Counted from the first letter of the stretch, positions 8,231-12,613 are shown. The stretch is 15,112 nt of DNA from a virus (IMGVR_UViG_648276650_000001:1-15112), one strand, 5' to 3'. Numbers and translations are program-made. The notes: generated by a model not told the origin, from the letters alone.

Positions 8231-8986
8231 TCAGCTCCTGATAAGAGATGTACCCGGGAAACCGCCGAACGGCAGTTCGTTGCTGTCTCCGTGCCGGAGC
8301 TTGCAGGCCGTCAGCGTGCCGTTGCAGACATCCAGCGAGGGATCGTCAACCGGATTATTGTTTTTGTCGAAATAGCGCGTTCCGGCATAGTCGCAGCCGT
8401 CGCCGGTCCGGTACTTGTTCCGGATGCACCAGCTGCATAACGAATGCAGCTGACGCGTCGGAATCATCTGGCCCTGTAAATCCATCGGACTGGAAAGCGT
8501 AAATTCGACAACTTCATCCGTCTCGGTGCTTCTGGCATCGATATAAAAGACCTTCAGCTTTTCCTGTGACGGGTCTGCAGTGGGATTGCCCTGCGGAAAA
8601 TTTCTGGCGTCCAGATACTGTGCCAGCGTGTCGTGGATACTCACTTTCGCCTGCAGCAGATCGTCATACGCCAGACAGAGCGCTGAGATCGAGCTGTCCA
8701 GGTTCGCCACCCTCAGTTTTGGCTGTGGGCTGGTACCATCCGTGGTCGCTTCAATACCCTCAACCTGACACGGCCAGGCTTTATACTCCTCCCCCTGCCA
8801 CCAGATGGACTTCGCCGGAAGTTTATTCTCGTCGCCGCCTGCGGCTTCAATCTCTTCCGGGGTGTGCGCGATATTGTGTGCGTGGAAGCGGAGCACATCT
8901 GACATACCGAACGCTGTACCATCGACAGAAAAAAGCCGGACTTCATTGCCCGGCTCAAGTTTTTGATAATCAGCATTAAGACTCAT
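8231..8986 (-). CDS. L: Minor tail protein L
   Basis: 251 aa, between M and K. Cys-rich C-terminal region consistent with the Fe-S-binding gpL family. Start overlaps the M stop. Confidence 0.9.
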   Translation of the reverse strand: MSLNADYQKLEPGNEVRLFSVDGTAFGMSDVLRFHAHNIAHTPEEIEAAGGDENKLPAKSIWWQGEEYKAWPCQVEGIEATTDGTSPQPKLRVANLDSSISALCLAYDDLLQAKVSIHDTLAQYLDARNFPQGNPTADPSQEKLKVFYIDARSTETDEVVEFTLSSPMDLQGQMIPTRQLHSLCSWCIRNKYRTGDGCDYAGTRYFDKNNNPVDDPSLDVCNGTLTACKLRHGDSNELPFGGFPGTSLIRS

Positions 8987-9335: not shown

Positions 9336-11852
9336 TTACCTGCGATTGGTCGCATTCCAGATAAGCCCACCGGGCTGGATTGCCCTGGCGATACCATCAT
9401 TGACAGATTTGTTAATCACCTGCTGATACGCCTTACCCAGCCTGTCTCCGTCGTTTTGCTGCTGTGCGTTACCGGAAGCATTCTCGACCGTCACCGGGGC
9501 ATACACACTGACACCGAAAGGTGCTGCAGCCGGGCCTGTACCACCGCCCCCGACATACCCTCCCGTTGCATAGCCTTTCATCATCCGGTAAAGATTGCCG
9601 ACGCCGATCCTGCTGGTAGCCTCTTTGGTGAAAACAAACTCACCACGGTGAACGACACCTGCTGGCTCATATTTCCCGCCTGAACCGGTATAACCGCCAC
9701 CTGCAAATCCCAGCGCGGTTGATGCTGAATCCACCAGGCCTACCATCGCCTGTTTCAGCAGGATCTGTGTCAGCATGGAGAGCGTGGAGCGGGTGAAGTC
9801 AGCCCAGTCAGCCTTTCCGCGCGTCAGCATGTCAGCCATATTTTGCCCAATGCCATCAAACGTACTGCTGGCAAACGACTTCATCTGGCCATAAGCATCA
9901 GAAGCAGAATCAACATAATCTGCCCATGCGGATTTGGCTCCGGATTGCCAGTCACCCCGAAGCTTATCCTGCTCGGCGTAATACGCATGCAGCCCCTGCA
10001 GCTCATTCTGATAACCGGCATCGTTTTCGGAACCTCCACCATTTTTCCACCCCTGAAGAAGCTGGGCCTCCTCGTTGCGGCGTTGTGCTGCACGACTGCT
10101 CATACCAGCACTTTCCGCCAGGGCTCGGGTTTTCTCGCCGATCTGCGTGACGTATTTTTGGGACGTATCCTGCAGGCGATTAAGCCGCTCCTGCGCCACT
10201 ATCTGATCGCCGAGCTTCGCGTTCAGCTCCGCACGGGAAAGCACCTCGCTTTTACTGGCCAGCAGGGATTTTTCCTCGGCAGAAAGCGTCCGGGTCTTCG
10301 CGGCCTCTTCCAGAACCGTAAAACGGGACTGCTTACGCCACAGCTCCTGACGCTGCTGGCTGATGGTGTCATTTATCCCCTTATGCTCCTGCAGGGTGCG
10401 CAGCTGTGCTTCCAGCTCCATCGTCTGGGCGCTGGCCGCATCGGTTGCACGGGTACCGGCAGGAGTCCTGACTGCAGGTGTTTTCTTCGGCTTTTTAAGG
10501 GTGTCTTCGTACTCTTTTTTCGCGGCAGCCAGGTTGATGTTGTAGTCAGCCTGGAGGATCCGCCCCTCTTTCAGCGCCTTGTTGAGCTCGCTCTGCCTGG
10601 CCGTGTATTTCTCCAGTGCCGTCTGCGTTTTGGCATAGTTTGCCTGTGCCTGCGCAGCATACTTCTGGCGATCCGATTCCGCAGCCGCTTCGCGCGATGC
10701 ATTCTCTTCGTTCGCCATGGCAATTCCCGCCTGCTGCTGCGCCATATCCAGCGCAAGCCTGGCCGTTTCGCGGTCATTCCAGAATCGGGCGCGAGCCTCA
10801 TCATTGACATATCGGTCACCTTTACGCAGGTTCCAGATTTCATCAGCCTTTTTAAACGCGGCCTGGGCTTTTGCCACCATCTCCTGGGCGGTGTCAGGTC
10901 TGCCAATATCAAGTGCAGCATCCCACATCGACTTGAAGGCACGCTTCAGGGAATCCGCTGAAGACTCAATCGTCCCCATATTGTCGCGGATGGCCTTGGT
11001 CTGATCGTTGAATCCGGCAGTAGCAGCCTGATTAGCCGCCTGCAGTGCGCCAGCCTCATCACCGGCACGCTGCAGCTGTGCCACATGGGCAATCTGTTCG
11101 GCCGTAACGTTGTGGAACTGCTGAGCCATCGCGATCAGGCCTGATGTAGGGTCAGTAGTGAGCTTGCCGTATGCGGCTGCGACTTTTTCCACCGGCACGC
11201 CGGAGGCATCAGTAAATCGCGCCACCGCCTGGCTCATTTCATCAAAGCGCGAACTCGCGCCCACCCCCGCGTTGATAAGCTCGCTCAGGGCTTCGCTGGT
11301 CTGATTGAACGTCAGCCCCGCTGCCTGGCCGTTTCGTGCCAGCGCCAACATACGATCGGCAGTCAATCCGGCCGTGTTCCCCGACAGTACCAGCGTTTTG
11401 TTGAAGTCAGATAGTGTGGATGAGCCCTGGTACCAGGCATAGAACAGCGCACCCGTTGCGGCGGACAGCGCACCGATGCCGACCATCAACGGTGAGATCG
11501 TACCCAGTAAGGCCCTGAATGTTGGTATTATCCCGCCAAAGGAGTCCTTAACCTGACCGCCCTGCTGAAGCAGAATCAGCCATGGGTTCTGCCCGCCCGC
11601 TAGCTGCGTAGCTATATCGGTAAACTGCGCCGGAAGCATACGCATTGCTGCGTTATACTGGCCTATTGAAATACCCGCCTTGCGCGCGGCGTTCTCCTGG
11701 CGGCTAAAGGACTGCTGGATCCGTAGCGCTTCGTCGTTCGCCGCGCTGCCAGTCTGCTTTAATTCTTTTTTGACGTAGTTAAGCTGCTCGTTAAATTTCG
11801 TCGAGTTAACGTCAAGGTTAACGACCAGATCACCCACTGCCGTCTGGGCCAT
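9336..11852 (-). CDS. H: Tail tape measure protein H
   Basis: 838 aa. The N-terminal region (GDLVVNL...KAGISIGQYNAAMRMLPAQFTDIATQLAGGQNPWLILLQQGGQVKDSFGG) closely resembles lambda gpH as I recall it. Long Ala/Gln-rich helical middle and Gly-rich C-terminus. Confidence 0.95.
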   Translation of the reverse strand: MAQTAVGDLVVNLDVNSTKFNEQLNYVKKELKQTGSAANDEALRIQQSFSRQENAARKAGISIGQYNAAMRMLPAQFTDIATQLAGGQNPWLILLQQGGQVKDSFGGIIPTFRALLGTISPLMVGIGALSAATGALFYAWYQGSSTLSDFNKTLVLSGNTAGLTADRMLALARNGQAAGLTFNQTSEALSELINAGVGASSRFDEMSQAVARFTDASGVPVEKVAAAYGKLTTDPTSGLIAMAQQFHNVTAEQIAHVAQLQRAGDEAGALQAANQAATAGFNDQTKAIRDNMGTIESSADSLKRAFKSMWDAALDIGRPDTAQEMVAKAQAAFKKADEIWNLRKGDRYVNDEARARFWNDRETARLALDMAQQQAGIAMANEENASREAAAESDRQKYAAQAQANYAKTQTALEKYTARQSELNKALKEGRILQADYNINLAAAKKEYEDTLKKPKKTPAVRTPAGTRATDAASAQTMELEAQLRTLQEHKGINDTISQQRQELWRKQSRFTVLEEAAKTRTLSAEEKSLLASKSEVLSRAELNAKLGDQIVAQERLNRLQDTSQKYVTQIGEKTRALAESAGMSSRAAQRRNEEAQLLQGWKNGGGSENDAGYQNELQGLHAYYAEQDKLRGDWQSGAKSAWADYVDSASDAYGQMKSFASSTFDGIGQNMADMLTRGKADWADFTRSTLSMLTQILLKQAMVGLVDSASTALGFAGGGYTGSGGKYEPAGVVHRGEFVFTKEATSRIGVGNLYRMMKGYATGGYVGGGGTGPAAAPFGVSVYAPVTVENASGNAQQQNDGDRLGKAYQQVINKSVNDGIARAIQPGGLIWNATNRR

Positions 11853-12581
11853 AGCGCACGCCTCCTGAAATACCTGCAGCCTTCGCCATCAGCGTATCGT
11901 CATCCGGCTCATCAACGTCGATGCTTTCCGATACAGGGGAAAGGATGCTGAAACTGTCCGGTGTTAATTCCGGATCAGCAAAAAACAGGGTTGAGATGGT
12001 GTAGAGCAAACCGGAGAAATGAGCATCCAGCTGCGCATCATGAAAGTAATTGTCCTGGTAGAAGATTTTCCAGTCGCCGTATTCCGTTGAGGACATGCCA
12101 GCAAGCATGGCACGCCAGTCCGGGCGACCGAACTCACGCGCCAGTTTCATGGCAAACTTCAGCTCACTGGCGAGGGCTTTTCCGCAGTAACAGGTTCAGC
12201 GGGTTCATTACGTTCTTCACCGGGCTCAGCCTGGTCATCAGTGACCGGCGCAATCATCCCGGACAGGAGTTTCACCTTATATTCGGCTTCGGCAACAAGT
12301 TCGGTCGGCCATGTCTGCATGACCTCATCCTGAATCTGCTCCACTTCCGCCGCCGCGTTTTCTCCCTGCGATCCTTTAAGCGCGTGGCCATGCCAGAGTG
12401 ACATTGCCACCAGATATGCTCCACTCTTCACGGTAAGGGTAATGGCAGCCTGAAAATCACCAGCTTCAACCGCCTCAAGTTGTTTCAGGTATTCGAGGTA
12501 TTCAATACGCTGCAGCGCCGACAGCTGGAACAATGTGACGCTGCTGCCGTTACTTTCAAGCAGCTCGCTCTTTAGAAACAT
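11830..12581 (-). CDS. T: Tail assembly chaperone G-T, predicted -1 programmed frameshift fusion (T frame continues to the stop at 11832-11830)
   Basis: The T reading frame is -1 relative to G and is open from 12195 to 11830, overlapping the last 12 G codons. The only slippery-looking motif in the overlap is GGAAAAG (minus strand, 12183-12177), one base different from lambda's GGGAAAG. The T end overlaps the H start, as in lambda. Confidence 0.75.
12159..12581 (-). CDS. G: Tail assembly chaperone G
   Basis: 140 aa. MFLKSELLESNGSSVTLFQLSALQRIEYL...AMSLWH...TWPTE...PAEPV...S matches the lambda gpG pattern as I recall it. GGAG Shine-Dalgarno 5 nt upstream. Confidence 0.9.
   Translation of the reverse strand: MFLKSELLESNGSSVTLFQLSALQRIEYLEYLKQLEAVEAGDFQAAITLTVKSGAYLVAMSLWHGHALKGSQGENAAAEVEQIQDEVMQTWPTELVAEAEYKVKLLSGMIAPVTDDQAEPGEERNEPAEPVTAEKPSPVS
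12177..12183 (-). other. Candidate -1 frameshift slippery heptamer G GAA AAG for G-T synthesis
   Basis: Read from the minus strand: zero-frame codons GCG GAA AAG CCC; -1 frame codons TGC GGA AAA GCC. The Lys-tRNA can re-pair AAG to AAA; the P-site re-pairing GAA to GGA is imperfect. Confidence 0.5.
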
Positions 12582-12597
12582 AATTACTCCGGGGGAA

Positions 12598-12613
12598 CGG
12601 GGCTTTCGCCCCG
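12598..12613 (-). other. GC-rich stem-loop (GAAA tetraloop on the mRNA) in the V-G intergenic region, next to the G ribosome-binding site
   Basis: cggggc (12598-12603) and gccccg (12608-12613) pair; on the minus strand CGGGGC-GAAA-GCCCCG. No following U-tract, so it is not a canonical terminator. Confidence 0.45.

Follow-up and report, generated by a model that had tools for sequence, protein, structure and literature searches.

The non-canonical heptamer GGAAAAG as the probable -1 frameshift site between tail genes G and T in a lambda-like siphovirus

Introduction

The best described counterpart of the locus studied here is the G/T gene pair of phage lambda, where a -1 frameshift occurs at the heptamer G_GGA_AAG, as later papers report with reference to Levin et al., 1993 (cited in PMC5009743 and PMC3296357). 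The measured G:GT ratio of lambda is about 30:1 (PMC5009743), and this ratio is critical for tail assembly (PMC5009743; PMC3296357). In E. coli reporters, GGGAAAG gave 0.28% frameshifting when no stimulator was present, and the IS911 stimulators raised this to 3.8% and the IS3 pseudoknot to 43% (PMC4066793, supplement). The tetramer A_AAG, which is the best one in E. coli (PMC4066793; PMC5009743), reached 5.6% with the same IS3 pseudoknot, and the best tetramer stays about 10-fold under the best heptamer (PMC4066793). Enterobacteria possess a single tRNA-Lys, which reads both AAA and AAG (PMC5009743).

Several other systems may be set beside our locus. The stimulated cassettes of dnaX, IS911 and IS3 likewise have an X_XXA_AAG-type site on a single tRNA-Lys, and a stable hairpin or pseudoknot located 5-9 nt downstream is needed for their efficiency. 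The sites of IS1222 (G_CGA_AAG) and B. subtilis cdd (A_CGA_AAG) share with our locus the A-site AAG to AAA core and a P-site codon which is not a canonical XXY. The nearest of all are genes 14/15 of phage N15, together with the corresponding junctions of phi80, HK225, mEp237 and LLS. They bear the same heptamer at the same position, and the locus described here is a member of this group, with no difference of substance.

Results

The G and T genes overlap in a lambda-type arrangement

All coordinates refer to the window, i.e. the whole analyzed stretch of 15,112 nt (IMGVR_UViG_648276650_000001:1-15112), and all features lie on its minus strand. The tail genes stand in the order V-G-T-H-M, with V at 13355-12618, G at 12581-12159, the T frame reaching to 11830 and H at 11852-9336 in the ORF list; Pfam matches were found also for V (tail tube protein), H (tape measure) and M. 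Gene G (12159..12581) runs in the 0 frame from ATG 12581 to TGA 12161-12159 and encodes a tail assembly chaperone of 140 aa, which ends with PVTAEKPSPVS, matches PF06894 (Phage_TAC_2, E 3e-51) and is named minor tail protein G in the mEp237 record. The T frame is -1 relative to G. It is open from after a TGA at 12196..12198, which sets the 5' limit of the shift in the window, as far as TGA 11832-11830, and its part read after the shift, from AAA 12180-12178 onward (11830..12180), matches PF06223 (Phage_tail_T, E 9e-13). These translations agree in every detail with the original prediction, in which T was placed in the -1 frame, opening after this TGA, and the shift near the end of G.

The overlap of both frames comprises 11 sense codons of G (CCT GTT ACT GCG GAA AAG CCC TCG CCA GTG AGC). 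Translation with a shift at GGAAAAG yields a G-T fusion of 250 aa with the junction PVTAEK-ALASELKF, of which 115 aa belong to T; on this fusion, PF06894 (lambda chaperone G) covers residues 1-126 and PF06223 (tail protein T) residues 164-241. The organization is thus that of lambda G/GT, as two overlapping ORFs are present between the major tail protein and tape measure genes, the upstream one encodes a gpG homologue and the downstream frame a gpT homologue (53% identity to lambda GT over the fusion), and the downstream ORF lies in the -1 frame, with a start codon of its own that is not conserved.

Two further features of this region were noted. The ATG of the tape measure gene H (11852) lies inside the final 23 nt of the T frame (11830-11852), an overlap which suggests translational coupling of GT and H. 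Between V and G, a hairpin CGGGGC-GAAA-GCCCCG followed only by TT is located at 12598-12613; it is a putative rho-independent terminator in the N15 record, while our consensus terminator scan did not flag it, and it may attenuate transcription downstream of the abundant tail tube gene. Our scan for promoters and terminators yielded nothing relevant.

The only slippery-like motif in the overlap departs from the canonical form

The heptamer G_GAA_AAG (12177..12183) is in phase with G, and the G stop follows 15 nt downstream, the same distance as in lambda. Its 0-frame codons are GAA (12182-12180) and AAG (12179-12177) and its -1-frame codons are GGA (12183-12181) and AAA (12180-12178). The motif check revealed no other in-phase Z_ZZN or heptamer-like slippery motif in the G/T overlap, so the earlier claim that GGAAAAG is the only candidate there was borne out. 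Positions 1-3 are G, G and A, hence the canonical X_XXY_YYZ pattern is kept solely in its YYZ half (A_AAG); relatives carry the canonical G_GGA_AAG or A_AAA_AAG in the same alignment column. On the other hand, the Z_ZZN pattern is present, namely an in-phase A_AAG (GAA AAG in the 0 frame), in a phage group whose hosts are enterobacteria with one tRNA-Lys (PMC5009743).

By itself, the motif is unremarkable in frequency. GGAAAAG occurs twice in the window against 2.0 expected, and N_NNA_AAG occurs in phase 20 times in about 4450 codons, which corresponds to a chance of about one in twenty (~5%) per 11-codon overlap. The significance of GGAAAAG therefore rests on its conservation and not on its presence.

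The second in-phase G_GAA_AAG of the window is located at 8558-8564, in tail gene L (8986-8231). A -1 shift there would add 14 residues before a stop. The first 16 nt downstream have no predicted structure, and the minimum free energy (MFE) of the following 120 nt is -28.0, against -48.9 at G/T. The gene L copy could thus serve as a natural negative control for the bare heptamer.

GGAAAAG is conserved in phages and prophages of many enterobacterial genera

The original prediction had proposed an alignment of related G/T junctions as a check, and this check came out in favor of the site. In a survey of 80 IMG/VR loci with relatives of G (identity as low as 54%), GAA AAG was kept in all but one. 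A second scan, anchored on the T side only and therefore blind to the heptamer, found in the same column GGGAAAG 105 times, GGAAAAG 10 times, AAAAAAG twice and AGGAAAG once. In a third survey, restricted to one genome per species, GGAAAAG appeared in prophages of Trabulsiella, Citrobacter, Enterobacter, Kluyvera, Pseudocitrobacter, Yokenella, Superficieibacter, Entomohabitans and Pluralibacter. Altogether, GGAAAAG is invariant in 81 unique G/T sequences, including prophages of at least 10 enterobacterial genera, and is found also in N15, HK225, phi80, LLS, Gifsy-2, mEp460 and a Providencia phage. The more distant of these (31-37% identity) read CCG GAA AAG TCC TGA (Gifsy-2 and mEp460) and CTG GAA AAG TAG (the Providencia phage).

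Codon choice at the site is strict. The A-site codon is AAG in 167/167 unique G/T sequences, and the P-site codon is GAA in 82 of them, GGA in 82, AAA in two and GCA in one. Within its class GAA is found in 82/82 sequences, never as GAG. In the window's own genes, AAG makes up 41% of Lys codons and GAA 53% of Glu codons.

Some sequences deserve a separate comment. Two one-off variants, GGCAAAG with GCA in the P site (L043, 1899-1905) and AGAAAAG with A at position 1 (L058, 1899-1905), both keep only A_AAG, and may be either sequencing noise or a sign that single-tRNA slippage suffices. Lambda-identical G/T sequences on short, low-coverage contigs (L222-L234) came from assemblies of Neobacillus, Oceanobacillus, Kitasatospora, Chromatium, Shewanella, Leeuwenhoekiella, Pseudomonas, Paenibacillus and Enterococcus, and almost certainly represent contamination of sequencing libraries with lambda DNA. 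A Geobacteraceae-labelled metagenome-assembled genome (L210, DAINBV010000046.1), whose G/T is nearly identical to that of Enterobacter prophages, is likely a case of binning contamination.

The heptamer is not a sequencing error and was already annotated in related phages

As the heptamer is one base off that of lambda (A and not G at position 3), it is conceivable that the real sequence is GGGAAAG and that the difference arose by a sequencing or assembly error, the outcome which the original prediction had named as its refutation. Nothing was found in favor of such an error, and its probability is practically negligible, because independent sequences are identical. The G/T region of the window matches that of mEp237 with 100% identity, as it does that of a second phage record and of about 20 complete E. 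coli chromosomes, whose sources were humans, pigs, a cat, a frog and cattle; 30 genomes match it at 90% or more, and identity is 92.5% to N15 and 91% to HK225. The conservation of the heptamer in the 81 unique sequences and in the distant phages stands equally against an error.

The site had also been noticed before. The N15 record (AF064539) bears a misc_feature 'slippery sequence for -1 translational frameshift' at 10027-10033, which is GGAAAAG, and the LLS record (PQ299149) contains a joined CDS and a 'minus-one programmed translational frameshift site GGAAAAG'; phi80 has the same G/T junction. The claim that G-T shifting takes place at a heptamer differing from lambda's by this single base is thus upheld by conservation and by these annotations. 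The further idea that it is a natural variant of a well-studied site stands insofar as the non-canonical heptamer is real, but not as a novelty, since two GenBank records already mark it: GGAAAAG as a G-T frameshift site is known to phage annotators and is not a discovery. Other records miss it. The mEp237 record has no frameshift annotation and lets 'GT' begin at an internal ATG (L001, 801-1121), and RefSeq presents T as an incomplete pseudogene from the internal ATG (L245, 701-1015, E. coli ECONIH4). The absence of the frameshift join from both points to a systematic annotation gap at the non-canonical heptamer.

Relatives narrow the shift down to the heptamer region, and a separate start for T is unlikely

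In three relatives (L062, L064 and L067) the T frame opens just 3 nt 5' of the heptamer, while the G stop lies 3 nt past it in five genomes and directly past it in the Providencia phage. Provided that the site is conserved across relatives, the shift would be confined to the heptamer and at most 3 nt on its 5' side. Even in genomes where G has terminated by then, conservation extends to the T-frame residues that directly follow the heptamer (A/V-L-A/T-S/G-E-L/R-x-F-V), with T-frame synonymous changes, which argues that this stretch is translated.

One might nevertheless assume that there is no frameshift at all and that T is translated from the ATG at 12148..12150, 8 nt past the G stop, either by independent initiation or by termination-reinitiation. 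This ATG is indeed present and is the one used by the mEp237 and RefSeq annotators. However, the codon at 12150 is CTG in 123/167 unique relatives, all lambda-type ones included, and ATG in only 42/167, which argues against an independent start. Moreover, the residues ALASELKFA between the heptamer and the ATG are conserved, also past G termination, no Shine-Dalgarno sequence precedes ATG 12150 in the window, and the function in lambda requires fused G and T domains (PMC5009743). We thus consider a separate T start very unlikely.

Slippage of RNA polymerase on the run of A residues, giving rise to a -1 mRNA, is another route to the same fusion, and the heptamer does contain four consecutive A. 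Transcriptional slippage is known, though, on runs of about 6-9 or more identical bases, and the conserved terminal G together with AAG, not AAA, suits a ribosomal shift on tRNA-Lys; hence this explanation appears extremely improbable. Sequencing error, independent T initiation and transcriptional slippage were thus all three rejected.

Taken as a whole, and with the mechanism proposed below included, the best explanation is that GGAAAAG at 12183-12177 is a programmed -1 frameshift site which produces the G-T fusion of a lambda-like siphovirus, and we regard this as very probably correct.

Position 1 of the heptamer favors slippage of two tRNAs

In the proposed mechanism, most ribosomes would read G through to its stop at 12161-12159, while a minority would slip back by one base on G_GAA_AAG and go on in the T frame, producing the 250-aa protein. 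The driving event would be the movement of tRNA-Lys (mnm5s2UUU) from AAG to AAA, an A-site slip which, as predicted earlier, is of the standard type and is shared with lambda. The P-site tRNA-Glu would probably shift along from GAA to GGA. Its anticodon is mnm5s2U-U-C, so that on GGA it would form G:C in the first position, G.U in the middle and A:U in the third. The re-pairing is thus imperfect, just as the original prediction had it, and the event would be a near-cognate tandem slip rather than pure single-tRNA slippage. In lambda, by contrast, the P-site tRNA is that for Gly, with a third-position U.G wobble after the shift.

Pure single-tRNA slippage, which the original prediction had named, as the predominant mode, as one of two possible outcomes beside a lower G-T:G ratio, would mean that only tRNA-Lys re-pairs, as on A_AAG of IS1222 or B. 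subtilis cdd, and that GAA and position 1 are irrelevant. The idea is not unfounded, as bare A_AAG supports -1 shifting and is in natural use (PMC5009743; PMC4066793), Peng et al. count G GAA AAG among the one-tRNA sites (PMC6924986), and L043 and L058 keep A_AAG alone. Position 1 speaks against it. Since this base occupies the third place of the codon before GAA, where the T frame is untranslated, it is a free synonymous site, yet it is G in 62/62 unique GGAAAAG junctions, after GCG, CTG and GTG codons, and again after CCG and CTG in the distant relatives; GCG accounts for just 27% of Ala codons locally. On the tree of 167 sequences, position 1 required 2 parsimony steps against 11-13 at each of three adjacent four-fold sites, and the probability of two or fewer changes under the neighbors' rate is about 4e-4, though three other four-fold sites nearby are likewise invariant. 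One of the position 1 changes is to A in the A_AAA_AAG class, where the rule demands A. If bases 5' of A_AAG were free to vary, as expected of a tetramer, such a pattern would be hard to understand, since positions 1-3 are nearly invariant in our comparison. The constraint on the P-site codon, where GAA is never GAG and only one sequence bears any other codon, also exceeds what a tetramer needs, with the caveat that the A which ends GAA is the first base of the A_AAG tetramer. Finally, tetramers fall about 10-fold below good heptamers with the same stimulator (PMC4066793).

The conservation of position 1, almost invariantly G behind four codon families, thus indirectly favors slippage of both tRNAs, with G.U as the middle pair of the P site, and disfavors a shift made mostly by a single tRNA, although L043 (GGCAAAG) and L058 (AGAAAAG) lose P-site pairing. 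We consider pure single-tRNA slippage rather unlikely. Compared with IS1222 and cdd, the P-site tRNA of our locus can keep two Watson-Crick pairs and a G.U, it carries mnm5s2U34 where theirs has inosine, and position 1 is conserved.

A candidate stimulatory structure is predicted downstream

The 124 nt from the heptamer onward have a predicted MFE of -49.5 kcal/mol (z -3.0). The 120 nt after the heptamer fold at -48.9 kcal/mol, whereas control windows from other parts of G/T average -31.9; they are more stable than controls in 35/35 non-redundant representatives. In the MFE fold, a candidate outer helix of 10 bp pairs 12171-12162 with 12106-12097; its 5' strand GCCAGUGAGC (12162..12171) begins 5 nt after the heptamer (+6) and its 3' strand is GCUUGCUGGC (12097..12106). 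Inside it lies a candidate GC-rich inner hairpin (12109..12142), whose pairing probability is near 1 in most relatives. Large hairpins starting from 7-11 nt downstream are found also in the MFE folds of lambda, Stx, Gifsy-2 and Providencia phage sequences.

Covariation is limited to a single pair of the outer helix, 12168-12100, which is A-U in 28 of the 35 representatives, G-C in 7 and broken in none. The synonymous site 12100 underwent two changes on the tree, both together with its partner 12168, i.e. in two independent events. Furthermore, four-fold sites at alignment columns 54, 57 and 87, all in predicted helices, are invariant in the 167 unique sequences, and columns 54 and 87 close the inner hairpin. 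On the other hand, the outer helix contains a G.G mismatch in 11/35 representatives, several relatives give it a predicted probability near zero and most lambda-type sequences a low one, and both its strands lie inside conserved coding sequence. Sharma et al. reported just a weak hairpin signal for the lambda gpG cluster, and no Rfam family matched the region, with a single chance sub-threshold match to a snoRNA. A small inner hairpin (alignment columns 38-42 with 49-53) was discarded as unsupported, as only 68% of its cells pair. The downstream structure is therefore best treated as a candidate stimulator, which, about 5 nt past the heptamer, may pause the ribosome and raise the yield of the fusion.

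As for the upstream side, neither GAACCTGTTACTGC nor the consensus of the relatives contains a Shine-Dalgarno-like GGAG, AGGA or GGGG, and no element of the dnaX/IS911/IS3 type was seen 6-17 nt upstream. The locus thus resembles these cassettes in a possible downstream structure with a spacing of 5-7 nt, which in the window is a prediction only, but differs from them in having no visible upstream Shine-Dalgarno-like element, and in an expected efficiency of a few per cent or less, not 50%.

Frameshifting efficiency is plausibly lower than in lambda

The reported slippage of related motifs is worth considering here. Licznar et al. in 2003 are said to have measured NNA_AAG motifs. Among the papers covered by our full-text search for frameshifting on GGAAAAG or 'G GAA AAG', which did not include that one or the 2004 paper of Xu, Hendrix and Duda, only Peng et al. 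2019 proved relevant. The search gave no experiment or fusion measurement for any GGAAAAG phage, and a search for N15 frameshifting gave nothing useful. Peng et al. used AUG GAA AAG as a 'less slippery' control, which yielded mainly the 0-frame product in a reconstituted system without stimulators, while under limiting EF-G a shift on G GGA AAG occurred with ease (PMC6924986). Second-position changes fall outside the thermodynamic model of Bock et al. 2019, which thus cannot predict GGAAAAG.

It is plausible that the GT:G ratio is lower than in lambda, unless the context compensates, and such an expectation seems reasonable because the control of Peng et al. slips poorly and tetramers are weaker than heptamers. 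The ratio of about 30:1 is a measured one for lambda. Lambda and the window also differ in the length of T, 144 aa versus 115 aa. T is about 144 aa long in lambda and Stx-type phages, which have a second copy of the C-terminal motif DDxMLMxxxEGIxGGVRYG (alignment A2, columns 250-290), and 115 aa in the GGAAAAG clade, with one copy.

Discussion

The original prediction regarded GGAAAAG as a variant of the lambda site. The history was probably the reverse, as GGAAAAG is the more widespread and comes out as ancestral on a midpoint-rooted neighbor-joining tree of the fusion proteins. A single origin of each heptamer class is seen on the tree of 167 sequences. On the protein tree, the sequences with GGAAAAG from Providencia, Gifsy-2 and mEp460 fall outside the rest, which is divided into a large GGAAAAG clade (N15, phi80 and the window) and a sister clade of lambda (GGGAAAG) and Stx phages (AAAAAAG). 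Parsimony on this tree suggests that GGAAAAG is ancestral and that the lambda heptamer is derived, a conclusion which depends on the rooting and on a small sample.

What our analysis adds is modest: the probable ancestry of the motif, the support which position 1 lends to a two-tRNA slip, and a candidate stimulator. The value lies in the comparative picture and not in the site itself. There are also practical consequences. Motif-based frameshift finders limited to canonical heptamers will miss GGAAAAG, and the mEp237 record and the RefSeq pipeline mis-annotate T as a separate ORF or a pseudogene.

One may go further and propose that G_GAA_AAG is both the ancestral and the most widespread G/T site, working in vivo by a two-tRNA slip with a middle G.U pair, aided by a conserved long-range helix that begins 5-10 nt downstream. 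In this full form we offer the idea tentatively, as one that is possible but rather doubtful. If it is true, what served as a non-slippery control in vitro would in nature be a frameshift signal maintained over a long time, and G_GAA_AAG would have given rise to canonical heptamers at least once. As a family-wide site that breaks the X_XXY_YYZ rule is found here in genes whose G:GT ratio is critical, the G/T junctions of these phages may be seen as a natural experiment on the extent of P-site pairing required for -1 frameshifting in bacteria.
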